From: Candidatus Limnocylindria bacterium
GTDB taxonomy: Bacteria; Chloroflexota; Limnocylindria; QHBO01
Direction of reading: 5' to 3'
Length of the DNA: 53,421 nucleotides
Assembly (NCBI GenBank): GCA_038322875.1
Contig: JBBQGI010000004.1
Span: 1-53,421 of the forward strand
Under the pieces are notes generated by a model, which ran no database searches, was not told where the DNA came from, and saw only the letters and a list, made by a program, of their open reading frames with translations. Positions 4,543 to 53,149 of the stretch are shown piece by piece. The first letter of the stretch is position 1; each line of letters begins with the position of its first letter. The position numbers were made by a program, and so were the translations under genes.

Positions 4543-4571
4543 TGGTCACCTCTGGCTGCTAGGCTCATGGC

Positions 4572-5063
4572 ATGCCCACCACGGCCTCGGTGCTGGCCAC
4601 CGTCATCGAACCGCAGCGGGCGCTGCGAGTCGAGGTCCTCACCGGGACTGGATTCAGACTGACCTTCGACACGGGGGAGGCCGGCGACCTGCGTGCTGGC
4701 CCCGGACCCACCGAATCGGTCCTGGCCGCGCTCGCCGGCTGCACCTCGATGGATGTCGGCAGCATCCTGCGCAAGAAGCGCCAGCCAGCCGCCAGCTATC
4801 GCGTCGCGGTCACCGCCGAGAAGGCGGACGAGCACCCGCAGGTCTACACCAGCATCGTTATCGAGCACCAGGTCGCGGGTCAGGTCGAGCCCGATGCACT
4901 GCGCCGGGCGATCGAGCTGTCGGCCACGACCTACTGCCCCGTCAGCGCCATGCTCTCGCACTCCGTGCGCATCGAGCACCGCTATCGGCTGACTCGCGAA
5001 GGGCACGCCGAAGTCAGTGCGCTCGTGGCGATCACGGGGCCGGACGGTACCGACGTCCGCTGA
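4572..5063 (+). CDS. OsmC/YhfA family protein
   Basis: GPTESVLAALAGCTSMDV and ATTYCPVSAML with the two OsmC-family cysteines. Confidence 0.9.
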   Translation: MPTTASVLATVIEPQRALRVEVLTGTGFRLTFDTGEAGDLRAGPGPTESVLAALAGCTSMDVGSILRKKRQPAASYRVAVTAEKADEHPQVYTSIVIEHQVAGQVEPDALRRAIELSATTYCPVSAMLSHSVRIEHRYRLTREGHAEVSALVAITGPDGTDVR

Positions 5064-5187
5064 GGTCGTCATTCAACCAGTTTCCCGTCGAGATGCGCGT
5101 CCGGCTATGGCGTGATGGTCCTGCCGGCGTCGCGTCCTTTCGTTGAGATCGGCGTGATTGCGCGTCCGGTGTAGGATGGCGCCCTTC

Positions 5188-12200: not shown

Positions 12201-12667
12201 CTCTCCGCGTCGGCGACACCATCCAGTGATTCGGGCGGGGAGGTCTGGTAGCCGGCGTGGGTCTCGAGGTGCAGGACCCCGTCGCCTCCTTCGCGGACCA
12301 CGTAGGCCGCCACGCGGGCGATTCGAAGGTGCGAGCGCAGTGCTTCGACCGCGGTCCGGCAGACGGCGGTCGCGTTCGCCGAGCCGCCGGCTCCCGAGGA
12401 GAGTCGCCCGAGCACCGCCAGCTCGACGGCGATGCGGTTGTCGCGCACTTCCGATCCGCCATTGTCAGAGCCCTCGGCGAGCAGGCGCTCGACGTCGCCG
12501 CTGCGATAGCGTCGGTCACCCCGGGCATTGATCCGGAAGGCCGGGAGACGGCCGGCATCGGTCCAGGAGCGGATGGTGTTGGGATGCACGCCGAGCAATG
12601 CGGCAGCCTGGGCGACGCTGACCAGCGCTCCCCGGTCCTCCCCTCGCTCGCGAGCCGATTGCGCCAC
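9266..12667 (-). CDS. Excisionase/MerR-like HTH + 4 GAF + GGDEF + degenerate HD-GYP signalling protein
   Basis: N-terminal VSVAQAAALLGVHPNTIRSWTDAGRL..GDRRY; four GAF repeats; DALTGL, DLDLFKGYND.LGH, RSND I-site and YGGDEF; C-terminal HADRV..ARLHS..ADAYD. Confidence 0.9.
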   Translation of the reverse strand: MAQSARERGEDRGALVSVAQAAALLGVHPNTIRSWTDAGRLPAFRINARGDRRYRSGDVERLLAEGSDNGGSEVRDNRIAVELAVLGRLSSGAGGSANATAVCRTAVEALRSHLRIARVAAYVVREGGDGVLHLETHAGYQTSPPESLDGVADAESAPEKLGGEAKVGPLRRQLALRAAGEILGALVLEDEPGGPLSEVALSFLRMVANAIGANLAMARSMVRAKREVARSRALRHVAQELAGQLDLSTVLDDIVDRTRTLFDAEKAGLWLIEEGEHPFHVAAARGLGDNFHAVAHQLTWGSTAVGVQAAKERRSMVVRGADSRAGVGVMQKVYREEGIKTACLVPLVIHDQALGIIGLYHTRDREWPDDEVALAQSFANQAAVAISNARLYRSVADQAARIRSIQDLSSRLNRLTDVQAIADAIVSEASSLAAYHDIRVYFVNWETGFCEPIAFTDRLLGEGDFHEKLRVEIGEGSFTGWVAEHGEPLLINDALNDMRGHTIEGTDDIDESMLVVPMVFEGRAVGVVALSKLGRDQFSNNDLQTMTIFAGYAAQAIANAGAYERLELQSAELARQLQSQRRLLEINERLLSSLDQQHVLETIADGLRSVVHYDNLSIYRADPENHVLVPVLTRERHAEQVMAYVVPFGRGLMGWATDHAEPVLANDALHDPRSVQIPGTPADPEALAVVPLISGGEVIGCMNISRVGGSGNYFSENDFELIKLFAGQGAIALRNADAHHAVSQRADTDALTGLRNHGAFQRMLGEMVDEFVAHAGTGRGKRSRARQRPLSLLMMDLDLFKGYNDRLGHPAGDALLHAVGLAIYGAARSNDSVFRYGGDEFALVLPGVDADAAMAIAERVRMAVFRLTAKDASPVTISIGVATLPEDSDDKNGLIAAADTALYFGKQSGGDQVVRANEVPLEMRHLRGTLDGLARTALQLPADAGTGGQVVHSALISGTPGDEGDVGVIDALLALARSIDARDPTARGHADRVGNLAVRIAGELGCSTDQVTEIEMAARLHSLDILGASELESIHSLRPAARIVRQHRSGVGPEEASTGAQIVSVADAYDTLMSSSTAKRGGRAAALAELRADVGGRFRPDVVGALATVVAARTDRGQRRREVDDPERERGAA

Positions 12668-12817
12668 TGCGCGCTCCTGTCCGATGCCTCAGGCGGCCCT
12701 GCCAGCGATTGGAACATCTGGTAGGTGCCGTGCATCAGATGGTAGAAGTGGGTAGGCGTGTCCCCGATACCCCGTTCGTACCGATTTGACCCGGTACCAG
12801 CGGCCTCCGCAGCGTGC

Positions 12818-13579
12818 TCAGCCGACGAGGAAAGCCCAGCCGGCGAGGATTGCGGCCGCTCCGAGGAGCGCGAAGGCGATGGCGAGCAGCACGGTGCCGC
12901 CCAGCATCAACCTGGACCGTGGACCGCCCAGCAACCGCATGGCATCGTCGAGTTCGAGGCTGGTGATGACGTAGCCGCCCCGCGGGGGCATCAGGGTCAC
13001 TAGGCCTTCTTCGTCGCGGCGCACCACGGCGAGCACGAGCAGGCGGTCGATGACGCTCAGCATCCGGGTGGTGGCCCGGGCCCGCCGCAGCGCCCCCTGC
13101 TCTTCGGTCACCCGCGACATCGCAGCGCCATACGACTCCTCGAGCTCGTCGGGGGAACCGTCCCAGACGTGTGGCAGCACGACCAGGGGATCGGCCGCGG
13201 ATGCGGGGTCGATCGACAGCGATCCGTCGTGGTCCCATAGCTGGAACGACCGGGTCTCACGCAACCGCTCGATGCTGCGCCAGCCCCCTCGCGCCGGCAT
13301 CACCTGCACATCGCGGTGGAAGGCCACCAGGCGATCATCGTCCCGCGTGACGATCGGCTCGGCGCAGCGAATGCGGCCGATGACGCGCACCGGTCGCGGT
13401 GGCAGGGGATCCCCTGGCTCGATGTCGAGCAGCTCTCCGACCCGCACCTCGTGAGCGCCGGCCAGGCGGCGCGCCATCGCCGGCCGTGCTCCCGAGCGGC
13501 GCACCAACAGCAGCCCGGCGGCCAGCACCAGCAGCCCGCCCAGCGTCAGCCACAGGGGAACGGCGAGGGAGGCTGGCAT
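12818..13579 (-). CDS. Membrane protein, TM-soluble domain-TM; possibly GIDE (MUL1-type)-like
   Basis: TM helices at both ends; PVRVIGRIRC and SFQLWDHDGSLSIDP resemble GIDE-domain proteins by eye only. Confidence 0.5.
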   Translation of the reverse strand: MPASLAVPLWLTLGGLLVLAAGLLLVRRSGARPAMARRLAGAHEVRVGELLDIEPGDPLPPRPVRVIGRIRCAEPIVTRDDDRLVAFHRDVQVMPARGGWRSIERLRETRSFQLWDHDGSLSIDPASAADPLVVLPHVWDGSPDELEESYGAAMSRVTEEQGALRRARATTRMLSVIDRLLVLAVVRRDEEGLVTLMPPRGGYVITSLELDDAMRLLGGPRSRLMLGGTVLLAIAFALLGAAAILAGWAFLVG

Positions 13580-31430: not shown

Positions 31431-33410
31431 GTGCCAGTGATCTCCGCCAACGCCATCCCGCTGAGATTCCAGACCGCCGAGGTCGGCGTGGACTGGCTCC
31501 AGTGCAATATCGAGTGCCAGGAAGGCTGCCCGGTCAATACCAATTGCCGGGGCTACCTGATGCTGGCCGCCGAGGGCCGGTTCGAGGAGGGCTACATCCT
31601 GGCCCGGGACCCGAACCCGGTCGCGGCCATCTGTGGCTACGTGTGCAGCGCCCCCTGCGAGAAGGCCTGCCGCCGCGGCGACATCGACAAGCCCCTCTCG
31701 ATCAGGGCCATGAAGCGCTTCCTGGTCGACTGGCATTACGGCAACAACATGCCGGACAACGTCGTGGTCGCGGAGCCGAGCGGGAAGAGCGTGGGCGTCA
31801 TCGGTGCCGGACCTGCCGGCCTGACGGTCGCCAAGGAGCTGGCCAGCTACGGCCACAAGGTCGACATCTACGAGGCGCTGCCGTCCGGCGGCGGGACCTG
31901 CCTGATCGGCGTTCCGGCCTTTCGGCTGCCGCGCGACGTGATCGAGCTGGACGTGAACTGGGTCGCCAAGCACGGCGTCGACTTCCACTACAACGTCGAG
32001 GTCGGGCGCGACATCACCCTCGACCAGCTGCGTGAGCGTCATGACGCGGTCGTGGTCTCTGCCGGCTGCATGTACCCGGTCGCCATGAACGTTCCAGGCG
32101 AGGAGCTCGATGGCGTGATCTACGGCGTCGACTTCCTGAAGCGTGCAAACCTGGGCGAGGAGCAGTGGGTCGGCGATCACGTTGTGATCGTGGGCGGCGG
32201 CTATACCGCCATGGACTCGGCACGCACCGCGCTGCGCATCGGCGCCAAGACCAGCACCATCGTCTACCGCCGTGGACCCGAGGAGATGGTGGTCGACGAG
32301 GAGGAGCAGCACGAGACCCGCTTCGAGGGCGTCAAGTTCGATTTCTTCAGCTCGCCGGTCGGCATCGTCAGCGATGACGCCGGGCACGTCACTGGGATCA
32401 CCTTCCAGCGCACGCGCCTCGGCCCGCCCGATGCCAGCGGACGTCGCAGTGCCGAGCCGATCGCGGGCAGCGACTTCACGCTGCCATGCGACATGGTCAT
32501 CCCGTGCACCAGCCAGGCATCCGACAACAACGTGCTGGGCGAGTACGGCGCCAAGCTGAACCGCCACCTGGGCGTCACCGATACCCGCGAGTTCGTGCCG
32601 GGCGGATCTGTCTCGTCGTGGCGAACGCCACCGCTCAACGGCACCACTCCGGTCGGCCCGGACGGCAAGAAGTACAACGCGCTGCAGTTCGAGCTCGCGC
32701 GTGGCTACGTCGTCGCCCAGGCGGACACGTTCCAGACCAGCGTCTCCGGGATCTTCGCCTGCGGCGACTTCGTGACCGGCCCGGCCACCATCATCGAGGC
32801 TGCCGGACGAGGACGACGCACCGCGCGCGCCGTCGACCGTTGGCTGCTCGGCGTGCGCGGGGCCGAGCTCGAGGAGCTGCCGGTCATCAACCGGGCCGTC
32901 ATCACCCAGGCGCTCGAGCACGACATGCCCGACAAGTACGAGGCGATCGAGCGCCAGCACATCCCCATGGCCCCGCCCGAGATGCGCCGCGACTTCACCT
33001 CCCTGGTGGAGGTGGGCTACGACACGCGCAGCGCCATCTCCGAAGGGCAGCGCTGCCTCCAGTGCAATCACAACATCAACATCGACGGGCCGCGCTGTAT
33101 CCTGTGCGGGCTCTGCGCCGATGTCTGCCCCGAGGGCGTGATCTACATGATCGACAAGGGGCAGGTCGGCGGCGACGACCCGGAGATCGACCTCTTCCAG
33201 TCATGGCCGCGGGGAATCGCCATGATCATCGACGAAGAGCGCTGCATCCGGTGCAACCTCTGCGTCGAGCGGTGTCCGACCAACTGCATCACCATGGACC
33301 GCCTCGAGCTCGAGCGAATCACGCCTGACGGAAAGGTGCTCTTGGAGAGCTACAAGGACAACGTGCTGGGGCAGATCGGCCAGGAGGCCGGCATGGCGGT
33401 CCAGCGATGA
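31431..33410 (+). CDS. NAD(P)H/FAD-dependent Fe-S oxidoreductase (GltD/NfnB/DsrL-like) with C-terminal 2x[4Fe-4S] domain
   Basis: [21 protein letters not shown]; GAGPAG; GGGYTA; YRR; ACGDFVTGP; RCLQC; [12 protein letters not shown] and [12 protein letters not shown]; no signal peptide. Confidence 0.9.
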
Positions 33411-34141
33411 CCTTCCCAGGGCCGGGCGACCTGATCCGGGTCGTCAAGGAGTCGGCGGCCTGGCGCAGCCTCTTCCGCCAACCCTATCCGACCACCAGTC
33501 GCACCCGCGCCCTGGCGGTGATGAACAACGTCTTCCTGCACCTGCACCCGGTGCGCGTCAAGAAGCACGCGGTGCGCTACACCTACACCTTCTGCCTGGG
33601 CGGGGTCAGCTTCTTCCTGTTCCTGGTGCTGACCGTCACCGGCGTCTACCTGATGTTCTTCTATGTGCCGTCGGTGACACGCGCCTACCAGGACATCCTG
33701 TCGATCGAGAACTCGGTCGCCTTCGGCTCGTTCGTGCGCAACATGCACCGCTGGGGCGCGCACCTGATGGTGCTCACCGTCTTCCTGCACATGATCCGGG
33801 TCTTCTACCACGGGGCCTACAAGCCGCCGCGCGAGTTCAACTGGCTGATCGGCGTGATCCTCCTCTTCTGCACGTTGTGGCTGAGCTTCACCGGCTACCT
33901 CCTGCCATGGGACCAGATCGCGTTCTGGGCGATCACGGTCGGCTCGCAGATGGCCACCTACGCGCCGCTGCTCAGCAAGGAGTCGAGCTTCATCCTTCTC
34001 GGCGGGGTGGAGGTCGGCCAGGGGACCCTGATCCGCTTCTACGTCATGCACGTGATCGCATTCCCGTTGATCACCGCCATCCTGATGGTCGTCCACTTCT
34101 GGAGGATCCGGAAGGACGGCGGCATCTCAGGCCCGGTCTGA
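33407..34141 (+). CDS. petB: Cytochrome b6-type subunit (N-terminal half of a split cytochrome b)
   Basis: FCLGG (heme ci Cys); heme His pairs MHRWG..FLH (14 apart) and MHV..VVHF (15 apart, b6-like); GYLLPWDQ; GISGP end. Confidence 0.92.
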
Positions 34142-34160
34142 GAAGAGCCGAGGTAGACCG

Positions 34161-34775
34161 ATGACCATCGAGAAGCGACCAAATGCGACGGCCGACAAGA
34201 ACGCGCCGACCCAGGCGCCGCGCCTCCCTGCCGTCGAGCGCGATCGTGGACCGAAGCTGCCCGGCCCGCCCGGCGTGCCGGGGACCGAGCGCTTCCGGCT
34301 GCTCGCCTACGTCAAGCAGGAGTCGATGGTGCGCGTCGACAAGCGCCCCGACGAGACGGTCCTGACCTGGCCGCACCTGCTGCGCGCCGAGTTCCTGATG
34401 GCGCTCCTGATCACCGTCCTGCTGGTCGTCGCCTCGGTCTTCATCGCCGCCCCGCTCGAGGAGATGGCGAACGCCGGCGTGACGCCGCACGTGGCCAAGG
34501 CGCCGTGGTACTTCCTCGGGCTGCAGGAGCTGCTCAGCTACTTCAATGCCACCGTCGGTGGCGTGCTGCTCCCGACTCTCTACCTGGTCGGCCTGGCGAT
34601 CATCCCGTATGTCGACCGCTCGCCGTACAAGGCGGCCCGTGACCGCAAGACGATCTGGGTCTTCTTCCTGGCGCTGATGCTGGGCGGGCTGCTGATCACC
34701 CTCATCGGCTCGTTCTTCCGCGGCCCCGGCTGGAACTGGGTCTGGCCCTGGGACGGGCTCTACTTCACGCTATGA
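34161..34775 (+). CDS. petD: Subunit IV (PetD/QcrC-like C-terminal half of cytochrome b)
   Basis: TWPHLL; TPHVAKAPWYFLGLQELL (PEWY-equivalent); IIPYVDRS. Confidence 0.88.
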   Translation: MTIEKRPNATADKNAPTQAPRLPAVERDRGPKLPGPPGVPGTERFRLLAYVKQESMVRVDKRPDETVLTWPHLLRAEFLMALLITVLLVVASVFIAAPLEEMANAGVTPHVAKAPWYFLGLQELLSYFNATVGGVLLPTLYLVGLAIIPYVDRSPYKAARDRKTIWVFFLALMLGGLLITLIGSFFRGPGWNWVWPWDGLYFTL

Positions 34776-35386
34776 GCCACCTGCCGACCTACGGCGAGGT
34801 ACCCGGGCGGCCGGTCGGCGAGATGACCAGGCGCAACTTCATGCGCCGCATCTTCTGGGTCGGCGCCGGCCTGCTCTCGATCGAATTCCTGGCGGGCACC
34901 GTCAACTTCCTGTGGCCGAATGTGCGCAGCGGCCTCGGCGGCAAGTTCACGATCGGCAAGGCCGCCGACATCGCCAGCGCGCAGCCGACCTGGACCGAGG
35001 GGCAGCCATTCGCCTTCGCCAAGGCGCGCGTCTTCTTCATCAATGTTCCGGCGTCGGAGTCGCTCGTCAGCGGCAGCAACGAGAAGGTGGCGGATCCGGG
35101 CGCCAGCGTCCTGGCGCTCTACCGCAAGTGCCCGCACCTCGGCTGCAACATCCCGCCGCTGTGCGATAAGAGCCTCTGGTTCGAGTGCCTCTGCCACGGC
35201 AGCAAGTACACCATCATCGGCGAGAAGCGAGCCGGTCCGGCGCCGCGCGGGATGGATCGCTTCGCCGTCACCGTGACCGATGGCACCTACGGGATCGACA
35301 CAAGCTCACTCGTCGCCGGACCGCCCATCGGCACCGCCACCTTCGACCCGCGCGACACGACCACGATTCCGCACTGCGCGGCCTGA
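34772..35386 (+). CDS. petC: Rieske [2Fe-2S] subunit with Tat signal/anchor
   Basis: TRRNFM twin-arginine motif plus TM; CPHLGC and CLCHGSKY; GPAPRGM. Confidence 0.92.
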   Translation: MSHLPTYGEVPGRPVGEMTRRNFMRRIFWVGAGLLSIEFLAGTVNFLWPNVRSGLGGKFTIGKAADIASAQPTWTEGQPFAFAKARVFFINVPASESLVSGSNEKVADPGASVLALYRKCPHLGCNIPPLCDKSLWFECLCHGSKYTIIGEKRAGPAPRGMDRFAVTVTDGTYGIDTSSLVAGPPIGTATFDPRDTTTIPHCAA

Positions 35387-35389
35387 GCA

Positions 35390-36238
35390 ATGCGGATCAA
35401 GACGCTCGGCATCGTCCTGATGAGCGCCATGGCCCTCTTCACCGCCTTCTACTGGGTCACCGACCCGGCTCGTCGCGAGAGCGCCTACGAGAACCAGGTC
35501 AAGGAGCTGGTCGCCTACGGCGAGGAGATGTTTGGGCCGCCGACCGCGGCGAACGACCATACCGCCAACTGTGCCGCCTGCCATGGCGCCGACGGGACCG
35601 GCGGCCCCGTCGGTGACACCGGCCGAGTGGCGCCGAACCTCCACTCGTCGAGCATCTACGACAAGCTGAAGGCCCAGAACGGCGGCTCGTTCACCGACAT
35701 CCGCAAGCCGGGCGATCCGCCCGACTACGTCAACCTGGTGATCCGCTTTGGCGGCGTAGTCGTCTCCGGCGACGTCAACTCTCCGATGCCGGCCTGGAGC
35801 TCAGAGATTGGCGGCGCGCTGACGATCAACCAGATCGACGCCCTCACCGCACTCGTCGAGACCTGGGCGCTGGAGGCCGGTGCGCTGCCGCGGGTCGACG
35901 TGCCCGATACCGTCGAGGCAGGCCAGAAGGTCTACACCGACTCAGGGTGCGGCGGCTGTCACGGGCCGCAGCTGGCGGGGATCCCGGGCACGTTCCCGAG
36001 CCTGGAGAACATCGGCAACCAGCCCGTCACCGAGCTGCCGACGCCGATCAGCCACCTCGACCAGCTGCAGGCCGACTACGCGGCCGACGCGCGCGCCTTC
36101 CTCGATCGTTGGATTCGCGACTCGGCGGTGAACTACAACGACGGCACCGCGACCGGCATGCCCGTGCACCCAGAAGGGAAGATCAGCAAATCGGCCCTGC
36201 AGGCCCTGATCACCTTCCTCTTGAGCCAGAAGCAGTGA
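35390..36238 (+). CDS. Membrane-anchored diheme cytochrome c
   Basis: N-terminal TM; CAACH and CGGCH; distal Met candidates in SPMPAW and TGMP. Confidence 0.9.
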   Translation: MRIKTLGIVLMSAMALFTAFYWVTDPARRESAYENQVKELVAYGEEMFGPPTAANDHTANCAACHGADGTGGPVGDTGRVAPNLHSSSIYDKLKAQNGGSFTDIRKPGDPPDYVNLVIRFGGVVVSGDVNSPMPAWSSEIGGALTINQIDALTALVETWALEAGALPRVDVPDTVEAGQKVYTDSGCGGCHGPQLAGIPGTFPSLENIGNQPVTELPTPISHLDQLQADYAADARAFLDRWIRDSAVNYNDGTATGMPVHPEGKISKSALQALITFLLSQKQ

Positions 36239-44448: not shown

Positions 44449-45207
44449 TCAGGCGCGGGCGGTCCAGACCAGGACGCCGTCGCCGGAGACCTTGACCCTG
44501 GGCCGCACCAGCGGTGGCAGATCCAATGGGTACGCCTGCGAGTCGCCGTGATACCCGCTGCCTGCGGACCACGCGTCGCTCCCGTTGGCGAGGTGCCCCG
44601 ACAGATCGAAGCTGGCGCCGTGGCACGGGCAGCGCAGATCCTTCCACCTCGGCCGGTAGGCGAGGGTGCAGCCCATGTGCGTGCAGACCGAGCTGAGGGC
44701 GCGGATCGTGCCGGCATTGTTCACCACGTAGCCGTCGAATGCGGCGGTCGAGAAGCGGACCGCGGCGCCCTCGGGCAGGTCGGCCAGGGTTGCCACCGCG
44801 ACCCACTCGCCGTTCGCGACGAGGGAGCCGTAGGAATCGACCAGCGGACGAGTGGCCGGACGCAGGATCGAGAGCCCCACGGCTCCGGCGGCCAGGCCCG
44901 CGGCCGCTCCCAGCCCGACCCGCAGCAGGTCGCGACGGCTCAGTCGGATGCGCTGGATCGGCGCCGCCGGCGGCGCCAAGCCCTGGACCGATGCGATCCC
45001 CGCATCGGCGTCGCGCATCCGCAGGCGGAGCTGCTCCACGAACGCGGAATCCGGCTCACCGCGGGTCACATCGCCGGCGGCTGACAGCTCGGCGGCCAGG
45101 CGGGCCATCTGCGCCTCGGCGCCACTGATTTCGTCGGGCGCGGGGCGACTTCCCGCAAGGAGCGCATCCACGAGGCGGTCGAAGGCCTCGGTGGGGTCGT
45201 CAGCCAT
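44449..45207 (-). CDS. Putative anti-sigma factor fused to a Tat-exported Rieske [2Fe-2S] domain
   Basis: About 85-aa helical N-terminus with PDSAFVEQLRLRM; internal LSRRDLL plus TM; CTHMGC and CPCHGASF; start overlaps the sigma stop. Confidence 0.75.
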   Translation of the reverse strand: MADDPTEAFDRLVDALLAGSRPAPDEISGAEAQMARLAAELSAAGDVTRGEPDSAFVEQLRLRMRDADAGIASVQGLAPPAAPIQRIRLSRRDLLRVGLGAAAGLAAGAVGLSILRPATRPLVDSYGSLVANGEWVAVATLADLPEGAAVRFSTAAFDGYVVNNAGTIRALSSVCTHMGCTLAYRPRWKDLRCPCHGASFDLSGHLANGSDAWSAGSGYHGDSQAYPLDLPPLVRPRVKVSGDGVLVWTARA

Positions 45208-45733
45208 CGGCTTCCACCGTCAGGAGCGCCGCCTTGCGCAGGGCGCGGTACTGCAGGACCTTGGCATTGCCGTTGCTGACCCCCAGCCGATCGGCCGTCT
45301 CGGCCACCGAGAGGCGGTGCAGGAATCGCAGCTCCAGGACTCTGGCGTACTGCGCCGGCAGGCGCTTCAGCAGCCGGTGCACCGCGGTGGCGGCGCGATC
45401 CGCATCGGCATCCGAGGAGGGATTGGCCGGTGGCTCGACTGGCTCCCAGGCGCCCGCAACCTGGTCGACGCGGATCTGCGGCAGCCGGTAGAAGGCGCGC
45501 CAGTAATCCGCCACCGCGTTCTGAGCCACCCGGTACAGCCAGGCGCCGATCTGCGGCGCGGGGCGATCGACGTCGAGCTGTTCGACGGCCCGCATGAAGA
45601 CCTGTGCGGTCAGGTCCTCGGCATCCGGGCGGTTGCCGACGCGCGCGTAGACGAACCGATGGATGGGGGTGACGTACTCCTCGTAGATCGCCTCGAAGCG
45701 CGTGCGGGGGAGCGCGGTCTCAGGCTCGGCCAT
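45200..45733 (-). CDS. ECF RNA polymerase sigma factor
   Basis: FEAIYEEY, DAEDLTAQVF, AWLYRVAQNAVADYWR, LELRF..SVAETA..LG..KVLQYRAL. Confidence 0.95.
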   Translation of the reverse strand: MAEPETALPRTRFEAIYEEYVTPIHRFVYARVGNRPDAEDLTAQVFMRAVEQLDVDRPAPQIGAWLYRVAQNAVADYWRAFYRLPQIRVDQVAGAWEPVEPPANPSSDADADRAATAVHRLLKRLPAQYARVLELRFLHRLSVAETADRLGVSNGNAKVLQYRALRKAALLTVEADG

Positions 45734-45762
45734 GCATATCGGGTACGCCGGGGGTTACGCGG

Positions 45763-46260
45763 CTAGGCGTCGCGCGGGCGGAGCGGCGCGAGGAGCGCCG
45801 CGATCTCCTCCAGGAAGTTGGCATCGGTCTGGTCGTAGGCGGCCAGGTCCGATCCGTCGATGTCGATCTCGCCGACCACCTGGCCCTCGCTGAAGATCGG
45901 CACCACGATCTCGCTCCGCGTCGTGGTGAAGCAGGCGAGGTAGCGGGGATCGGCGTTCACGTCGTCGACGATCTCCGTCTGGCCCGATGCCGCGGCCGCG
46001 CCGCAGATCCCCACTCCGATTGGGATGCGCGTGTGCTCGGTCGCCTCGGGACCGGTCCACGGACCGAGCACGAGCTCAGCGCCGGAGGCATCGACCCAGT
46101 AGATCCCGACCCAGTCGTAGTGGGCGAAGCGGTCGTGGAGCAGGTCCACCGCGCGCTGGGCGGCGGCCTCGGGGCCGGGCGCCTCGGCGATGGCGGAGCG
46201 GATCAGGTTGAGGGCGTCACCGTGCTCGACGGGGCGCTCCTCGGCGACCGCGTGACTCAC
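45763..46260 (-). CDS. msrC: Stand-alone GAF protein, free methionine-(R)-sulfoxide reductase-like
   Basis: WVGIY, LGPWTG, IPIGVGICG, YLAC, SEIVVP, EIDID; GTG 46260 overlaps the HxlR stop. Confidence 0.8.
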   Translation of the reverse strand: MSHAVAEERPVEHGDALNLIRSAIAEAPGPEAAAQRAVDLLHDRFAHYDWVGIYWVDASGAELVLGPWTGPEATEHTRIPIGVGICGAAAASGQTEIVDDVNADPRYLACFTTTRSEIVVPIFSEGQVVGEIDIDGSDLAAYDQTDANFLEEIAALLAPLRPRDA

Positions 46261-46652
46261 TGCGTCGGCGCCCAGCGGTCCGCCCAGCGGTCGATGCGCG
46301 CGATGGCGCGGCGGAGGTCCGAGCCCTTGTCGGTGAGCGAGTACTCGACCCAGGGCGGCACCTCGGAGATCATGATGCGATCGACCAGGCCCTCGTCCTC
46401 GAGCAGCTTGAGGCGCTGCGAGAGGGTCGCCGAGTTGGCGCCACCGAGGGCGTCCTGCAGCTCGCAGAAGCGCTGGGTCCGCTCGCCGAGCGACCGGACG
46501 ATGCGCATCACCCACTTCTGGCCGAGGACGTTGAGCGCAGCCGTGGCGGCGCACTCGCTGCGCTGGGCTGCCGCTCTTCGCTCGGCGCGGGAACGGTGCG
46601 ACGTCCGGGGCGACGACGCTCCCGGCAACGCGTGCGGGGCGGGCTCGATCAT
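46257..46652 (-). CDS. HxlR-family winged-helix transcriptional regulator
   Basis: C..TAALNVLGQKWVMRIV, RFCELQ, LSQRLKLLEDEGLVDR, PPWVEYSLTDKG; start approximate. Confidence 0.9.
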   Translation of the reverse strand: MIEPAPHALPGASSPRTSHRSRAERRAAAQRSECAATAALNVLGQKWVMRIVRSLGERTQRFCELQDALGGANSATLSQRLKLLEDEGLVDRIMISEVPPWVEYSLTDKGSDLRRAIARIDRWADRWAPTQ

Positions 46653-46697
46653 CAGGCGGCGGACGATAGCACCGCCCTCCAATCGCTGCAATCGTGC

Positions 46698-47117
46698 CTA
46701 GCGAACGTGGACCGTGGTGTGCATCGACGCGTGGATGGTGCAGGTGAACCGATAGTCTCCCGGCAGGTGAAAGGTCACCGCTGTGCTGCCGTGAGGAGGG
46801 AGCCGCTGGCGCGCGCACGCGTTATCGGCCGCATGGCCCGAGACACCCTCGGTGACGGTGTGAGAGGTGTCGTCAAGGCTGACGAAGGCGACCGCATCCT
46901 CGGCGTCTACCGTCACCGCCGGTCCGAAGGCGCGGTCCTGCAGGTTGATGGTGGCGTTTGCCCGGGCTCCCGGCGCGAGCTCGCAGCGCGCGCTCGGCTC
47001 CAGGCTCCCCGTTGGCTGGGGAGTGCTCGCAGTCTCCGCCAGGTCCCCGGTGACGGCAACGGCCAGCAGCAGTACGGCGGCACCGGCCACGGCGATGGCC
47101 AGGCGGACTCTGCTCAT
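46698..47117 (-). CDS. Secreted cupredoxin (type 1 blue copper protein)
   Basis: Signal peptide; SHTVT His and CTIHASM (Cys/His/Met) ligand loop; PGDYRF. Confidence 0.85.
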   Translation of the reverse strand: MSRVRLAIAVAGAAVLLLAVAVTGDLAETASTPQPTGSLEPSARCELAPGARANATINLQDRAFGPAVTVDAEDAVAFVSLDDTSHTVTEGVSGHAADNACARQRLPPHGSTAVTFHLPGDYRFTCTIHASMHTTVHVR

Positions 47118-47133: not shown

Positions 47134-48195
47134 CTACGCGTCCCCCTGCTGGGCCGGAGCGACGGGAAGCGAATCGTAGCCCTTCCAGCGGTAGATCAGC
47201 GTCGATACGGTCCAGCTGACTACAAAGATGCCGATGATGGCGAGACCGATGAACCCAAAGTCCAGGTTTGCCACGAAGTCCCAGAGGCCGCCGCGCAGGT
47301 GCAGCCTGTCGGCGACGATCGAGAGCACCTCCACGCCGCCGACGGCGAAGGCGATCAGCACCGAGACCAGGGTGATGTTCAGGTTGTAGTAGAGCTTGCG
47401 AATCGGCTTCACGTAGGCCCAGCCGTAGGCGCCCAGCATCAGGACCCCGTCGGTCGCATCGACCAGGGACATGCCCGCCGCGAAGAGGGCGGGGAGCACC
47501 AGGATGAAGGCGATCGGCACGTGGTTGGCGCCGGTGGTGGCGGCCAGGCCCAGGAGCGCAACCTCGGATGCGGTGTCGAAGCCGAGGCCGAACAGCAGGC
47601 CGAGCGGATACATGTGCCAGCTGTGACGAATGGCACGCAGCATCGGGCGGAAGAGGCGGGCCAGCAGGCCGCGGCTGTTCAGGAACTCCTCGAGCGTCTC
47701 CTCGCTGTAGGCACCGCCTCGTGAGACGCGCCGGAACATGCGGTAGACGTCGATCAGCACGATCAGGTTGATGAGCCCGATGATCAGCAGGAACGCCGCC
47801 GACACGCTGGTGCCGATGAGGCCGCCGATCTCCTGGAAGGCCGGGATGTCGGTGATCACCGAGGCCGAGATGGCGATCACCACCGACAGCGCGACCACGA
47901 TGGTGGAGTGACCGAGCGAGAAGAAGAGCCCGACCCCCACCGGCCGCTGCCCGTCGGACATCAGCTTGCGGGTGGTGTTGTCGATCGCCGCGATGTGGTC
48001 GGCATCGACGGCGTGGCGCAGCCCGAAGGTGTAGGCGAGGAACGCGGTCGGGAGGAGGATCGGGTAGGAGATCGACGCGGCCAGCGCGAGGCCCCACGCC
48101 ACGAGGTTGAAGGCGAACAGGAAGGCGTACATCCGCACGATGCGGGCCCGGATCGGGCCTGGGGTGCGCAGGAGACGGAGAGCGCTGTCGACCAT
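47134..48195 (-). CDS. High-affinity nickel/cobalt permease (NiCoT, HoxN/NixA family)
   Basis: GLRHAVDADHIAAID, FSLGHSTIV, LFGLGFDTASE, GMSLVDATDG. Confidence 0.95.
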   Translation of the reverse strand: MVDSALRLLRTPGPIRARIVRMYAFLFAFNLVAWGLALAASISYPILLPTAFLAYTFGLRHAVDADHIAAIDNTTRKLMSDGQRPVGVGLFFSLGHSTIVVALSVVIAISASVITDIPAFQEIGGLIGTSVSAAFLLIIGLINLIVLIDVYRMFRRVSRGGAYSEETLEEFLNSRGLLARLFRPMLRAIRHSWHMYPLGLLFGLGFDTASEVALLGLAATTGANHVPIAFILVLPALFAAGMSLVDATDGVLMLGAYGWAYVKPIRKLYYNLNITLVSVLIAFAVGGVEVLSIVADRLHLRGGLWDFVANLDFGFIGLAIIGIFVVSWTVSTLIYRWKGYDSLPVAPAQQGDA

Positions 48196-48369: not shown

Positions 48370-49149
48370 ATGCCGCAGACCACCATCTACGTCGCGCCCC
48401 GGCTCGCCGGGACGCTGGGGACCATCCCACCGGCCATCGCCACCGATGAGCTCGCGCGCCTCTTCGGTCGCAGCGCCGCGCTGGCGGGTGTCTCGCTGAC
48501 GGTCGAGATGGGCCGCACGGTCGCCCTGCTGGGGCCTAATGGGGCGGGGAAGACCACGCTGCTGCGGATCTGCGCCACAGCCGTCCAACCCTCCTTCGGC
48601 ACGCTGGCGATCGACGGCATCGATGCGCTGCTCTACCCGGAGCAGGTCCGGCCGCGCGTCGTCTATCTCTCGCACGCCACGGCCCACTACGACGATCTGA
48701 GCGCCGAGGAGAACCTTCGGTTCGCGGCGGTCATGTTCGGCTGGGGCGTCCGCGAGGGAGCGGGCGTGGCGCGTGAGGCGCTCGACACGGTTGGGCTGGC
48801 TTCCGTCGCCGGCGCGCGGGTCCGCACCTTTTCGGCCGGCATGCGCAAGCGCCTGGCGCTCGCCCGTGTTCTGGTCGCGCGTCCCTCACTTCTCCTGCTG
48901 GACGAGCCGCATGCCGCGCTGGACGATGACGGCATGGCGCTCGTCGACCGGCTGATCGGCCTCTGGCATGAGGCGGGGGTGACCGTGATGGTCGCCTCGC
49001 ACCAGTCGGAGCGGGTTGTCGGACTGGCCGATGCCACCGTCCGCCTCGACGGCGGCCTGCTGGCCGAGGTGACCGGCGCCGGCGTCAGTGCCGGACCGGT
49101 GGGAGCGTCGGCGCGTCCCCGCGCGATCGCGGTCGGGACGGATCGTTGA
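48370..49149 (+). CDS. ccmA: Heme exporter ATP-binding protein CcmA
   Basis: GPNGAGKTT, FSAGMRKRLALAR, LLDEP; first gene of the ccm operon. Confidence 0.9.
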   Translation: MPQTTIYVAPRLAGTLGTIPPAIATDELARLFGRSAALAGVSLTVEMGRTVALLGPNGAGKTTLLRICATAVQPSFGTLAIDGIDALLYPEQVRPRVVYLSHATAHYDDLSAEENLRFAAVMFGWGVREGAGVAREALDTVGLASVAGARVRTFSAGMRKRLALARVLVARPSLLLLDEPHAALDDDGMALVDRLIGLWHEAGVTVMVASHQSERVVGLADATVRLDGGLLAEVTGAGVSAGPVGASARPRAIAVGTDR

Positions 49150-49835
49150 ACGACCTGCGTCGCGGCCTCACTGTGGCGCTGGCCATCGCGCGCAAGGACG
49201 CTCTCTCCGAGCTGCGCGGAAGGCAGGCGGCCGGCTCGACGCTCTTCTTCGCCGCCATCGTGCTGCTCCTCTTCGGTTTCGCGCTCGGACCCGACTCGCG
49301 GCGCCTGGCCGAGGCGGCGCCCGGCCTGCTCTGGCTGGCGATCGTCTTCGGCGGCCTCCTGACGGTGGCACGCCTCCACCAGCTGGAGGCCGATGACGGG
49401 GCGCTCGAGCAGCTCGCCCTCTACCCGGTTGACCGGCGCGCGATCTACGCCGGCAAGGCGCTCGCCGGCGCGGCGGCCATGCTCGTGCTCGGCGGCCTGC
49501 TGCTGCCGGTGGTGGCCATCCTGTACGCGATCCCGATCGGGGCGGCCTGGCTGCCGCTGCTGGTCGCCGTGCTGCTGGGAGCCATCGGCTTTGGGGCGGT
49601 CGGCACCGCCTACGCCGGGCTGACGGTGCGCATGCGCGCCCGCGAGGTGATGCTACCGCTCCTGATGCTGCCGATCGTGGCGCCGCTCCTGCTGGCCGCC
49701 GTGAAGGCCACCGTGGCCGCGCTCGCCGGCGATCCGCTCGGCGAGCTGGGATCCTGGCTGCAGCTGCTGCTCGCTTTCGACGTCATCATGCTCGTCGTCG
49801 GAGCCGGCACCTACGGCTTCCTGCTGGAGGAGTGA
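49146..49835 (+). CDS. ccmB: Heme exporter permease CcmB
   Basis: IARKDALSELR, APGLLWLA, REVMLPLLMLPIVAP. Confidence 0.92.
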   Translation: MNDLRRGLTVALAIARKDALSELRGRQAAGSTLFFAAIVLLLFGFALGPDSRRLAEAAPGLLWLAIVFGGLLTVARLHQLEADDGALEQLALYPVDRRAIYAGKALAGAAAMLVLGGLLLPVVAILYAIPIGAAWLPLLVAVLLGAIGFGAVGTAYAGLTVRMRAREVMLPLLMLPIVAPLLLAAVKATVAALAGDPLGELGSWLQLLLAFDVIMLVVGAGTYGFLLEE

Positions 49836-50572
49836 TGAGAACCCGCGTCCTGGGCTTCGTGGCGCTGACGGCCGTGATTGCGGCGACGATCAACGGCCTC
49901 TTCATCGTGCCGGCTGATCTCAACCAGGGCGATGCCCAGCGGATCATGTACGTGCACGTCGCATCGGCCTGGCTGGCATATGCCTCGTTCGGGGTCACCG
50001 CGCTGGCCGGGATCGGCTACCTGATCTGGCGCGACCTTCGACTGGATGCCGTCGCGCTGGCGGGAGCGGAGGTGGGCGTGATCTTCACGGCCTTCGCGAT
50101 CTGGGGCGGGATGATGTGGGGCCGCCCGGTGTGGGGCGTCTACTGGCAGTGGGAGGACCCGCGGCTGACCACCACCGCCCTGCTGCTGGCGCTGTACATC
50201 GGCTATCTCCTGCTGCGACGACTCACCGATGACCCGCCGCGCCGCGCCGCGCGCGCCGCGGTGGTCGGCCTGATCGCCGCGGTCGACATCCCCATCGTCC
50301 ACTTCAGCGTGATCTGGTGGCGCGGCCTGCACCAGGGCGCGACGATCGGCGATCCGGCGAAGATCCTCAATCCGAGCGCTCCGCTGCAGTTCGTGCTGGC
50401 GCTGCTCGGGATGCTCGGCGCCTTCACGCTGGCCTGGGTCTACCTGATGATCCGCCGCTACCAGCTGGCCAGGCTGGAATGGCGGCTCGAGGAGGACGCC
50501 CGCCTGGGCCGCGTCAACGCGGCGCGCCGTGCCGGCGCTCCCGTCAGCGCGAGCGAGGAGCCGGCCCGATGA
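49835..50572 (+). CDS. ccmC: Heme exporter/chaperone CcmC
   Basis: IMYVHV, WGRPVWGVYWQWEDPRLT (WWD domain), VHFSVIWW.LHQ. Confidence 0.95.
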   Translation: MRTRVLGFVALTAVIAATINGLFIVPADLNQGDAQRIMYVHVASAWLAYASFGVTALAGIGYLIWRDLRLDAVALAGAEVGVIFTAFAIWGGMMWGRPVWGVYWQWEDPRLTTTALLLALYIGYLLLRRLTDDPPRRAARAAVVGLIAAVDIPIVHFSVIWWRGLHQGATIGDPAKILNPSAPLQFVLALLGMLGAFTLAWVYLMIRRYQLARLEWRLEEDARLGRVNAARRAGAPVSASEEPAR

Positions 50573-50712
50573 TGGACGTTGGCTTCGTGATCGCCGGATA
50601 CGGGGTGATCCTGGGCGGCATCGCGCTCTACGCCGCGTTCCTGGTTCGGCGGTTGCGCACCGCCCGCAACGCCGAGGCTGATTCCGCGCCACCCGTCGAC
50701 CGACTGCGATGA
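50569..50712 (+). CDS. ccmD: CcmD-like small membrane protein
   Basis: 47 aa, one TM then a basic stretch, between ccmC and ccmE with ATGA overlaps. Confidence 0.7.
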   Translation: MMDVGFVIAGYGVILGGIALYAAFLVRRLRTARNAEADSAPPVDRLR

Positions 50713-51166
50713 CCCTGGCGCGTCCGGTCCTGCCGCCCCTGCCGCCGCGTGGGCGTCGCTGGGGTGTCCTGCTGGGAGTGGCGGTGGTTGTGGCGGTGAT
50801 CGCCTATCTCGCGCTGAGCAGCGTCGGCAACGCACTCGTCTATTACGTCACGCCCACCGAACTGCTGGCACGCGGCGACTACGCCATGGACCACCCCGTC
50901 CGAGTGGGCGGCCTCGTGAAGGTGGGGAGCGTGATCGAAGACCCAGCCGGCCTGACCTTTACGCTGACGGACGGCACGACCGAGTTGACGGTCCGCAGCA
51001 CGGCGCTGCCCACGCGGTCATTCCGCGAAGGAGCCGGCGCGGTGGTCGAGGGGACGCTCAACGTCGAAGGTCTGTTCGAGGCATCGCAGGTGATCGTCAA
51101 GCACGACGAGAACTACGTCGCGCCGTCGCCGGGGGAGCTTCCGACCGAGGGGTTCGACCCCGGCAC

Positions 51167-51170
<4 letters not shown>
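50709..51170 (+). CDS. ccmE: Heme chaperone CcmE
   Basis: LVYYVTPTE, VRVGGLV, FREGAGAVVEG, KHDENY (HxxxY). Confidence 0.95.

Positions 51171-53149
<1,979 letters not shown>

Follow-up and report, generated by a model that had tools for sequence, protein, structure and literature searches.

Pairs of ECF sigma and anti-sigma factors are a main route by which bacteria sense conditions outside the cytoplasm, and to our knowledge the signal sensed by most ECF groups is not known. Redox-sensing examples have been described, and the sensors of the RsrA, RshA and ChrR type and of the SigK-RskA type are cytoplasmic and rely on zinc-thiolate or disulfide chemistry. Among Rieske proteins, actinobacterial QcrA contains an internal Tat motif and is inserted by the Tat pathway with an uncleaved signal anchor. 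RsbN, the anti-sigma factor of BldN, consists of three helices and one transmembrane segment with a class III anti-sigma domain and has been reported from Streptomyces only (PMC6101532). The small Rieske protein PetC3, in which Ser is replaced by Ala and Tyr by Phe, has an Em of +135 mV compared with approximately +300 mV for GSxY Rieske proteins, and an Em of +160 mV was measured for the Chlorobaculum tepidum Rieske protein (PMC10172866). Our literature search for ECF or anti-sigma factors together with Rieske proteins returned only incidental co-mentions with no such system described, and the main text of the ECF reclassification paper, in both versions, contained no mention of Rieske. The original prediction for the locus studied here, which was made from the DNA sequence, had stated that no characterised example was known, and we likewise found no describing paper. 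As far as the literature was searched, an exported Fe-S cluster acting as an anti-sigma sensor is undescribed.

The window analysed in this study is a stretch of 53,421 nucleotides from a Candidatus Limnocylindria bacterium, and the features of interest are collected in Table 1. Judging from sequence comparisons, we consider it moderately probable that two overlapping genes in this window encode a cognate ECF sigma factor and anti-sigma factor, the latter of which would carry an exported, low-potential [2Fe-2S] Rieske domain as its sensor.

Table 1. Positions of the gene pair, its predicted parts and the neighbouring features in the window.
Feature	Position	Strand	Basis or remark
ECF sigma factor gene	45200..45733	minus	ORF, 177 aa
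Anti-sigma-like partner gene (head, twin-arginine motif, hydrophobic segment, Rieske)	44449..45207	minus	ORF, 252 aa
Predicted cytoplasmic N-terminal domain, aa 1-76, three helices	44980..45207	minus	AlphaFold2 and conservation
Twin arginine R91-R92 within SRRDLLR	44932..44937	minus	Conservation in 241 members
Hydrophobic segment, aa 97-115	44863..44919	minus	Kyte-Doolittle
Rieske domain, aa 134-252, predicted to be exported	44452..44808	minus	Pfam PF00355
GAF-domain protein, free methionine-R-sulfoxide reductase (fRMsr) type	45763..46260	minus	Pfam GAF; directly upstream of sigma
HxlR-family transcription regulator (start codon uncertain)	46257..46691	minus	Pfam HxlR, E 8e-25
Amicyanin-like cupredoxin, type-1 copper ligands (H...C-x2-H-x2-M)	46698..47117	minus	Pfam Copper-bind, Cupredoxin_1
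Promoter-like element CGTAACCCCCGGCGTA	45744..45759	minus	10 nt upstream of sigma ATG

Profile matches identified the product of the upstream gene as an ECF (group IV) sigma-70 factor, with Pfam Sigma70_r2 at residues 16-80 (E 2e-11), Sigma70_r4_2 at residues 117-167 (E 7e-12) and a score of 76.5 bits against the NCBIfam model TIGR02937 (cutoff 42.9). Its best NCBIfam match was the BldN family (TIGR02952 / ECF121) at 114.3 bits (cutoff 206.45), while its actinobacterial homologue reached 71 bits; by this measure, BldN is the closest family, but the sigma factor is not a member of it. The best solved relative was the sigma-BldN chain 6dxo_A (E 2.8e-21), and the actinobacterial sigma factors possess an N-terminal extension resembling the BldN pro-sequence (PMC7826278). 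The locus resembles sigma-BldN/RsbN (ECF121, PDB 6DXO) in several further respects. In both, the partner gene lies directly downstream of the sigma gene, and the layout predicted for the partner agrees with that of RsbN, with three cytoplasmic helices with variable linkers, a single hydrophobic segment and an extracytoplasmic domain. In contrast, the partner showed no sequence or fold match to RsbN, whose outer domain is 272 residues of unknown fold, whereas that of the partner is a Rieske [2Fe-2S] domain that follows a twin-arginine motif.

The original prediction had described the pair as two genes overlapping by 8 nt and the partner as a helical cytoplasmic domain with a PxxxFxxxLR segment, an internal twin-arginine motif with one transmembrane helix, and a complete Rieske domain whose GASF box lacks the Ser and Tyr of GSxY. 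Each of these features was recovered in our analysis. In particular, the sigma stop and the partner start overlap at 45200-45207, and the order of cytoplasmic helical head, one hydrophobic segment and exported domain supports a layout of the single-pass anti-sigma type, as read from the protein sequence. Two ORFs of like size, at 3784-5072 and 11926-13238, were considered as second copies of the pair and rejected; their translations are unrelated.

The C-terminal part of the partner is, by its sequence features, a bc-type Rieske [2Fe-2S] domain. Pfam PF00355 matched residues 134-209 with 50.8 bits (cutoff 20.3), and both boxes were present, CTHMGC at 175-180 and CPCHGASF at 193-200, with the ligands C175, H177, C193 and H196 and the disulfide pair C180/C195. 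Five of these six residues were invariant in all 241 family members, and H196 was kept in 240. Box II reads G-A-S-F in the partner and GA(S/T)F across the 241 members, as in PetC3, and thus differs from the high-potential signature G-S-x-Y. The closest solved chains were 8hn2 (the C. tepidum Rieske protein) and 5cxm (PetC3), with E values of only 1e-9 to 1e-10. The partner shares with both proteins the minimal bc-type fold of approximately 110 residues, the disulfide cysteines and the Ser to Ala replacement in box II, and with PetC3 also the Tyr to Phe replacement. In contrast, PetC3 has a lipoprotein signal and neither a cytoplasmic head nor a linked sigma gene, and the sequence identity is low. 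Given the small bc-type fold, the stabilising disulfide and a GA(S/T)F box like that of PetC3, the cluster of the partner probably has a low potential, roughly +100 to +160 mV by analogy.

The partner was also compared with the Rieske subunits of cytochrome complexes. Similar to bc1/b6f Rieske subunits and actinobacterial QcrA, it has a twin-arginine motif before a hydrophobic segment and a predicted Fe-S domain on the outer face. Unlike them, it has no adjoining cytochrome b gene, and its scores of 38.5 bits against PetC (cutoff 250) and 32.3 bits against QcrA (cutoff 275) in NCBIfam were far below the cutoffs, so that a role as a cytochrome bc1/b6f Rieske subunit was rejected. A bc-type respiratory Rieske protein is encoded 9 kb away at 34772-35386 and keeps both Ser and Tyr in its box, CLCHGSKY.

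Between the head and the Rieske domain, SRRDLLR at residues 90-96 followed by VGLGAAAGLAAGAVGLSIL at 97-115 agrees with the sequence pattern of a Tat substrate (S/T-R-R-x-F/L-L-K/R and a moderately hydrophobic stretch), although Pfam TAT_signal scored 14.1 bits, below its cutoff of 22.7. The segment has the highest 19-residue Kyte-Doolittle mean in the partner (1.9), is the sole segment of its kind, and is flanked by R96 and R116, with the positive charge concentrated N-terminally. R92 was found in all 241 members and R91 in 239. From these properties, residues 97-115 may represent a Tat h-region that anchors the protein in the membrane, or possibly a signal that is cleaved off. A possible cleavage by signal peptidase would part the sensor from the head, which counts against the cognate pair proposed here. 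As a variant of the anti-sigma reading, we weighed an export-coupled release, which we judge distinctly unlikely. Here, the first ~115 residues would be a cleavable Tat signal peptide with a sigma-binding cytoplasmic extension; only a folded, cluster-loaded Rieske domain would pass Tat proofreading, and proteolysis after export, by signal peptidase and then by a signal-peptide or site-2 protease, would free the sigma factor, whose activity would report Fe-S loading and Tat flux and not an external signal. The composition of the hydrophobic segments is in line with such cleavage, as they are rich in Ala, Gly and Thr and contain many small-x-small sites typical of cleavable Tat signals, and in the actinobacterial members they are weakly hydrophobic and only ~17 residues long. 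The invariant or nearly invariant twin arginine also fits, as does the finding that PetC3, the closest characterised small Rieske protein, is released from its signal and lipid-anchored (PMC10172866). However, the release of one sigma molecule for each exported molecule in an autoregulated operon would lead to unchecked positive feedback, and the 19-residue window segment, with its hydropathy and its arginines on both sides, could anchor the protein stably as in bc-type Rieske subunits.

The N-terminal head was predicted by AlphaFold2 to form three amphipathic helices (5-17, 30-44 and 54-74; pLDDT 67, pTM 0.35) with variable linkers, followed by the single hydrophobic segment. A model of the whole partner built with 28 close homologues was used for secondary structure only because it was poor (pLDDT 50). 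Across the 241 members, the conserved head residues were L16, R21, P22, P52, F56, L60 and R61, with the P52-F56-L60-R61 segment nearly invariant, and the conservation of the head equalled that of the Rieske domain. A profile of the head retrieved 36 matches from 1.84 billion representatives. Among the matches inspected, every intact one longer than ~185 aa ended in a Rieske domain, and none carried any other sensor domain. The head is thus tied to one sensor type, unlike many modular anti-sigma heads, which counts against an anti-sigma function.

Comparisons of the head with known domains gave no relative. Searched alone against a word-indexed sequence database, it matched nothing beyond fragments of its own family, and a 24-sequence profile and its members found no meaningful match among PDB sequences or in Pfam, the best stray matches being Cmr (E 0.27) and scattered single-member Pfam hits. 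Foldseek of the head model against the PDB likewise gave no fold match (best E = 4). Profile searches against PDB sequences and Pfam and the fold comparison alike detected no similarity to anti-sigma domains of class I, II or III. A class I domain (RseA, RsiW, ChrR; zf-HC2) was rejected in particular, as there was no Pfam or PDB-sequence match, three helices are predicted instead of four, and the head lacks the HxxxCxxC motif and contains neither Cys nor His.

The pair was conserved. In all 80 Limnocylindria (Chloroflexota) loci fetched, the sigma gene lay directly upstream of the partner gene on the same strand, with sigma orthologues 61-86% identical and partners diverging to as little as 54% identity. 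The same 8-nt overlap was present in 68 of the 80 loci, a count that rests on our assignment of start codons. Distant partners (~30-35% identity), among them those of the cultured Actinomycetota Catenulispora acidiphila DSM 44928, Streptacidiphilus and Streptomyces sp., were also preceded by an ECF sigma gene, with a 4-nt overlap. In C. acidiphila (CP001700), the sigma gene is at 2856524-2857120, the Rieske gene at 2857117-2857815 and the cupredoxin gene at 2855741-2856280. In all, the pair was found in two phyla and a third, unplaced clade. Among the 28 non-Limnocylindria loci with enough upstream sequence, the sigma gene adjoined the partner gene in 26; in one of the remaining two (L093), the sigma gene was in the same cluster, and in the other (L118), it was absent and the partner copy had lost its 5' end. 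As a control, loci with only a relative of the Rieske domain and no N-terminal domain were inspected, and a sigma gene was nearby in 1 of 44. Sigma linkage thus tracks the N-terminal domain and not the Rieske fold. No other candidate anti-sigma gene was conserved beside the sigma gene at the loci compared.

The pairing is not chance. The notion that the adjacency is an accident of gene order within one lineage, with no functional meaning, could draw on the wide conservation of the neighbouring genes among the 80 Limnocylindria loci, where aminotransferase, transketolase-like and ccm genes also remain near the pair and much of the synteny may be simple collinearity. We regard this notion as extremely improbable, and the loci outside Limnocylindria together with the control already contradict it: the same pairing recurs in Actinomycetota and the third clade amid entirely different flanking genes, the overlap of stop and start codons has been preserved, and an upstream element is common to the loci. 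The original prediction would have been contradicted by a Rieske gene that is not conserved beside ECF genes; its retention beside an orthologous ECF sigma gene, translationally coupled through overlapping codons, across two phyla and a third clade is the opposite result.

Upstream of the pair, the fRMsr-type protein matched methionine-R-sulfoxide reductase PDB 3mmh (E 1e-31) as well as yeast YKL069W and E. coli YebR, and its gene was present in 79 of the 80 Limnocylindria loci. The HxlR gene was present in 71 of the 80, and its product showed a weak NCBIfam match, below the cutoff, to the redox regulators RrpB and RrpA. The cupredoxin, which gave a weak NCBIfam match to amicyanin, is of the class whose genes keep company with the pair in both phyla. 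The cupredoxin of the actinobacterial module matched 42 of the 80 Limnocylindria loci (34-46% identity among the rows inspected), and from locus to locus the cupredoxin gene is variously placed divergent to the pair, upstream, downstream, or between the sigma and Rieske genes. Additionally, the modules of Actinomycetota hold a Tat-signal metallophosphoesterase and a small membrane protein.

This company raises the alternative that the Rieske protein is a working electron carrier, for example as the partner of the cupredoxin in an extracytoplasmic redox chain. It would be co-transcribed with the sigma factor governing the module, its head would serve export, assembly or docking, and the sigma factor would be controlled otherwise. 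We consider this alternative rather unlikely, although the intact Rieske domain retains all catalytic-type features, the cupredoxin travels along in both phyla and the metallophosphoesterase and small membrane protein do so in Actinomycetota, the head has no detectable homology to anti-sigma domains, and the BldN-pro-sequence-like extension of the actinobacterial sigma factors offers another possible layer of control (PMC7826278). Against it, the other genes of the module are shuffled, yet the Rieske gene stays right behind the sigma gene, their codons overlapping, in all but two loci; the linkage to sigma follows the N-terminal domain; the one copy without a sigma gene has lost its N-terminus; and small Rieske carriers such as PetC3 (110 aa) have no conserved cytoplasmic helical head of 75 residues.

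A promoter-like element fills most of the 29-nt gap between the fRMsr and sigma genes, and this was the only match to the element in the 53-kb window. Of 79 Limnocylindria loci, 77 had it just ahead of the sigma gene; ahead of the cupredoxin gene it was found in 28 of 45, compared with a background of ~0.06 matches per kb. In Actinomycetota, the related GTGTAACCC-N6-CTAT precedes both the sigma and the cupredoxin operons. The element is directional, present in both phyla and rare elsewhere. Its first box, CGTAAC, is identical to the BldN -35 hexamer. An autoregulated ECF promoter is expected to have an AAC-containing -35 box and a CGT-type -10 box, ~16-17 nt apart. The element does not fit a simple -35/-10 promoter because its invariant second box lies only 6-7 nt after GTAAC, although a weaker sGTGA/CGATG box was found where a -10 box would be expected. 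The Limnocylindria element abuts the start codon. For the closely spaced boxes, a -24/-12 geometry of the sigma-54 kind was considered and rejected, since the sequences are unlike a sigma-54 promoter. Matches downstream of the Rieske gene in three loci (L006, L019 and L060) were coding coincidences on the antisense strand of a small convergent membrane gene.

The distribution of the element bears on the targets of the sigma factor. The petBDC, ccm and erpA genes had been put forward as candidates, but we found no support for them within the window because the sole copy of the element there precedes the sigma gene and the actinobacterial form GTAACCC-N6-CTATC gave 0 matches at up to 2 mismatches. 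The consistent companion carrying the element is instead the cupredoxin gene, of which the window copy has none. Whereas BldN targets chaplins and rodlins, the likely target here would be a cupredoxin operon.

For a cognate pair with a Rieske sensor, we propose the following mechanism. The membrane-seated partner would hold its three-helix head in the cytoplasm and keep the BldN-like sigma factor from RNA polymerase, while the Tat pathway would carry the folded, cofactor-loaded Rieske domain across the membrane by means of the internal twin-arginine motif and hydrophobic segment. A change in the state of the cluster, which an extracytoplasmic partner may oxidise or reduce and which oxidants or copper may damage or remove, would inactivate or destabilise the anti-sigma-like protein and free the sigma factor, which would then transcribe its own operon and, in most relatives, also the amicyanin-like cupredoxin operon. 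We infer sigma binding by the head, Tat export, retention by the anchor, sensing by the cluster and the release step from the arrangement described above. The signal may be redox state, Fe-S supply or Tat load.

A redox-active group of the partner would decide the release of an ECF sigma factor, as in the known redox sensors RsrA, RshA and ChrR (zinc-binding ZAS type) and SigK-RskA. The fRMsr and HxlR-type genes give the Limnocylindria neighbourhood an oxidative-stress flavour. In contrast to the known sensors, the partner is predicted to carry its redox centre, an Fe-S cluster, on the extracytoplasmic side of the membrane. More tentatively, and with less confidence than in the cognate pair itself, the sequences suggest that the partner could be the first anti-sigma factor with an Fe-S cluster sensor outside the membrane and the first to be Tat-inserted, with a head akin in design to class III, reading redox state, oxidants or copper, possibly through electron exchange with the cupredoxin. 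If true, this would be a new signalling chemistry, based on a one-electron redox centre with an added sensitivity to oxidants and copper, and signalling would become linked to Tat export and to the assembly of Fe-S clusters. The pair may also provide a first entry point to the function of the small PetC3-type Rieske proteins. The idea is directly testable because cultured carriers exist and both a target operon (cupredoxin) and a promoter element can be named as candidates. The pair is widespread in soil Chloroflexota and Actinomycetota, with hundreds of members annotated only as 'Rieske (2Fe-2S) protein', and the family is also present in cultured Kitasatospora strains.

The ORF reading, Pfam searches and models confirmed every feature on which the pairing of an ECF sigma factor with a Rieske-bearing, anti-sigma-like partner had originally been proposed: the 8-nt overlap between sigma stop and partner start, the helical head, the twin arginine, the hydrophobic segment, the full Rieske domain and its GASF box. 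The top NCBIfam family for the sigma factor was the BldN family, at 114 bits and thus below the cutoff of 206, and its nearest solved relative was sigma-BldN in the RsbN complex (6dxo_A, E 2.8e-21). In the partner, three helices were modelled in the N-terminal head (residues 5-17, 30-44 and 54-74), followed by the Tat-type motif SRRDLLR (residues 90-96), the sole strongly hydrophobic stretch of the protein (residues 97-115) and a Rieske domain (Pfam, 50.8 bits) that contained the boxes CTHMGC and CPCHGASF and kept both bc-type disulfide cysteines.

Features of the window discussed in the text, in order of position
Feature	Position	Strand	Basis or remark
Respiratory-type cluster	33407-36238	+	Rieske and cytochrome c
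Rieske protein with its own Tat motif and CLCHGSKY box	34772-35386	+	Within the respiratory-type cluster
Cytochrome c	35390-36238	+	After the respiratory-type Rieske gene
Transketolase-like protein, 789 aa	41862-44231	+	Weak, split matches to Transketolase_N, pyrimidine-binding and C-terminal domains
Membrane protein, 74 aa	44218-44442	+	Converges on the Rieske gene, 6 nt between stops
Partner (Rieske protein), 252 aa, four-part	44449-45207	-	ORF reading, modelled helices, Pfam Rieske
Sigma factor, 177 aa, minimal ECF type	45200-45733	-	Pfam Sigma70_r2 and Sigma70_r4_2
CGTAAC-type element, single copy	45744-45759	-	Within the 29-nt intergenic gap 5' of the sigma gene
Free methionine-R-sulfoxide reductase (GAF type) and HxlR-family regulator	45763-46691	-	Between cupredoxin and sigma genes
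NiCoT-type nickel/cobalt transporter	47134-48195	-	Pfam NicO, E 6e-103
Presumed cytochrome c maturation genes (ccmA-, B-, C-, E- and F-like)	48400-53149	+	Divergent from the NiCoT gene

The partner had many close homologues of full length; wherever the source named an organism it was a Chloroflexota MAG, and the titles of genome-contig records added Limnocylindria. When one genome was scanned for each species, 80 loci were obtained, mostly titled Limnocylindria, Chloroflexota or Chloroflexia. An orthologous sigma gene was located directly upstream on the same strand in all 80, with the 8-nt overlap retained in 68 (start codons as assigned in this analysis). Because these genomes are broadly collinear, this linkage alone is weak evidence. 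When a profile of the head was compared with 1.84 billion representative proteins, only 36 hits were obtained; the intact hits of more than about 185 aa that were read all had the partner architecture, and the other long hits were frameshifted or truncated gene calls. The N-terminal domain thus appears to be restricted to the Rieske-partner architecture. Three distant members with 30-35% identity each had an upstream ECF sigma gene with a 4-nt overlap, and a profile built from them revealed hundreds more family members. Among the latter were Catenulispora acidiphila DSM 44928, C. subtropica, several Streptacidiphilus, Kitasatospora, Streptomyces sp. and Actinocrinis.

The sigma-Rieske pair was constant in Catenulispora, Streptomyces and Streptacidiphilus, while the flanking genes differed. 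The sigma gene adjoined the Rieske gene in 26 of the 28 distant-clade loci, metagenomic and genomic, that had enough upstream sequence, and the expectation that the Rieske gene would be conserved beside ECF genes therefore held in these loci as well as in the 80 scanned ones. At one locus (L093), the sigma gene belonged to the same cluster but lay three genes away. L118 (3462-4106), alone among the family loci, had no sigma gene; its Rieske frame lacked a start codon and about the first 15 codons, and this copy is probably a decaying orphan. These cross-phylum data rule out pure chance or collinearity as the cause of the pairing. As a control, we inspected 44 loci that encode only a Rieske-domain relative lacking the N-terminal domain; a sigma gene was nearby in only one, indicating that the sigma link goes with the N-terminal domain. 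The Rieske protein may alternatively be a mere electron carrier that is co-transcribed with its regulator. From the genomic data, we infer binding between the two proteins, and a cognate sigma/anti-sigma pair is the best-supported reading.

Two observations concern the sigma genes themselves. If the called starts are correct, the actinobacterial sigma factors (L084, 5408-6004, from C. acidiphila, and others) appear to carry an N-terminal extension of ~35 residues, which recalls the BldN pro-sequence and would then be a second control layer. At one Limnocylindria locus (L007, 7462-8760), the sigma reading frame, which differs from that of the Rieske gene, had no stop for 432 codons; an error of sequencing or assembly close to the sigma stop, and not a fusion, is the probable cause.

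An alignment of 241 members from both phyla showed that the cluster ligands C175, H177 and C193 and the disulfide pair C180 and C195 were present in all members, and the fourth ligand, H196, in 240; G-A-(S/T)-F in box II was essentially fixed. The twin arginines R91 and R92 were found in 239 and 241 members, respectively. Within the head, P22 and F56 were invariant, L16 and L60 were each found in 240 members, and R21, P52 and R61 in more than 95%. The head thus combined three conserved amphipathic helices, the third with a hydrophobic stripe and conserved arginines, with interhelix linkers that varied in length and sequence. AlphaFold2 predicted the helices with confidence but not their packing (pLDDT 67, pTM 0.35). 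Profiles of the head gave no matches among PDB sequences or Pfam, and a Foldseek search with its model revealed no related fold; the resemblance to the class III anti-sigma domain of RsbN, which was described with the same helix and linker pattern (PMC6101532), is therefore one of design only. In the proposed mechanism, the three-helix cytoplasmic head would hold the BldN-like sigma factor, and the Tat-exported, low-potential, disulfide-bearing Rieske domain would be the sensor. Alternatively, a cleavable Tat signal may make up the N-terminal ~115 residues, with an extension that binds the sigma factor; release of the sigma factor would then report on export and on the loading of the cofactor.

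The best solved matches to the partner Rieske domain were the small Rieske protein of Chlorobaculum tepidum (8hn2) and Synechocystis PetC3 (5cxm). Both share its Ser-to-Ala change in box II, and the Tyr-to-Phe change is common to the partner and PetC3. Their potentials are +160 mV and +135 mV, respectively, versus about +300 mV for GSxY Rieske proteins (PMC10172866). In contrast to the partner, the respiratory-type Rieske protein of the window retains the CLCHGSKY box. The two ORFs preceding the latter are presumably parts of cytochrome b.

As an ECF sigma/anti-sigma system, the pair would be known in kind, and its novelty would lie in the cofactor of the sensor and in the route of export. Our literature search, which did not extend to the ECF Hub group descriptions, found no description of a Rieske-bearing anti-sigma factor or of an ECF group defined by one. 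Public annotation of family members gave no hint of a sigma/anti-sigma role; the distant members, wherever named, were called only 'Rieske (2Fe-2S) protein' or b6-f/ferredoxin subunit.

In Actinomycetota, the pair adjoined a three-gene set encoding an amicyanin-like cupredoxin, a metallophosphoesterase and a small membrane protein, which was placed divergently, upstream on the same strand, downstream or between the sigma and Rieske genes. In C. acidiphila (CP001700; L084, 3295-4628) and homologues, the metallophosphoesterase N-terminus (MSRRQLLRHAGWFGSAVVL) reads like a Tat signal, and the multi-helix membrane protein of 130 aa had no family match. The usual order in Limnocylindria was cupredoxin, HxlR-type regulator, GAF protein, sigma and Rieske, with the order sigma, Rieske, cupredoxin and GAF in one subclade of three loci (L050, L052 and L054). 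The actinobacterial cupredoxin matched the Limnocylindria cupredoxin in 42 of the 80 loci, with 34-46% identity among the rows inspected; the two are homologous. The HxlR-family regulator of the window has the N-terminal Cys that typifies the redox-sensing members of its family. The GAF protein is of the free methionine-R-sulfoxide reductase type (3mmh, E 1e-31); both genes were kept in most Limnocylindria loci and absent from the actinobacterial module. The NiCoT gene precedes the cupredoxin gene by 16 nt on the same strand and was found in only 10 of the 80 loci. Together, the companions hint at extracytoplasmic redox, oxidant or metal stress: a blue copper protein occurs throughout, Limnocylindria add methionine-sulfoxide repair and an HxlR-type regulator, and a nickel/cobalt transporter adjoins in the window.

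A directional element with fixed spacing, GTGTAACCC-N6-CTAT(C/T), was present upstream of both the sigma and the cupredoxin operons in Actinomycetota (27 instances). Its Limnocylindria form, CGTAAC-N6-CGTA, gave 112 hits in 2 Mb counted on both strands; it was located just 5' of the sigma gene in 77 of 79 loci, 5' of the cupredoxin gene in 28 of 45 and 5' of a divergent CHRD-domain gene in three. Three of the four leftover hits (the fourth being in L031) were rejected as coding coincidences. In the L050, L052 and L054 subclade, a third, minus-strand copy ~165 nt upstream of the sigma gene faces the divergent gene, which encodes an exported CHRD-domain protein (Pfam CHRD, E 5e-16) and is a possible additional regulon member.

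The first box of the element is identical to the -35 hexamer of the BldN consensus, CGTAAC-N16-CGTTGA (PMC2375139), and a weaker sGTGA/CGATG box was found at the expected -10 position. The second box (CGTA or CTAT) is invariant and lies just 6-7 nt after GTAAC, within the would-be promoter spacer, and the Limnocylindria element ends 10-14 nt ahead of the sigma ATG, so that the sigma transcript may be leaderless. Because of this middle box and the near-contact with the start codon, we treated the element as a shared cis element, which fits sigma autoregulation and a cupredoxin target, and not as a mapped promoter. The window scan found no copy before the local cupredoxin gene, the petBDC-like genes, the ccm-like run or other genes. 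The respiratory and haem-maturation targets (petBDC, ccm) of the original prediction thus gained no support, since the only copy precedes the sigma gene and the companions point elsewhere. A further conserved box, GCGTCAAAT, was located in Limnocylindria 10-12 nt 5' of those copies of the element that lie near the cupredoxin gene (e.g., in L024, ~80 nt ahead of the inferred start of that gene). Read on the opposite strand, as ATTTGACGC, the box includes the -35-like hexamer TTGACG, and it may serve as a divergent promoter of the housekeeping type or as the site of a regulator.

Among the other neighbours, the ccm-like run was kept in 39-55 related loci and the transketolase-like gene in 48 of 80. 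The 74-aa membrane protein had no match in a Pfam search, and in some loci its conserved ...PYIIGYL... coding sequence mimics GTAAC-N6-GTA on the opposite strand.
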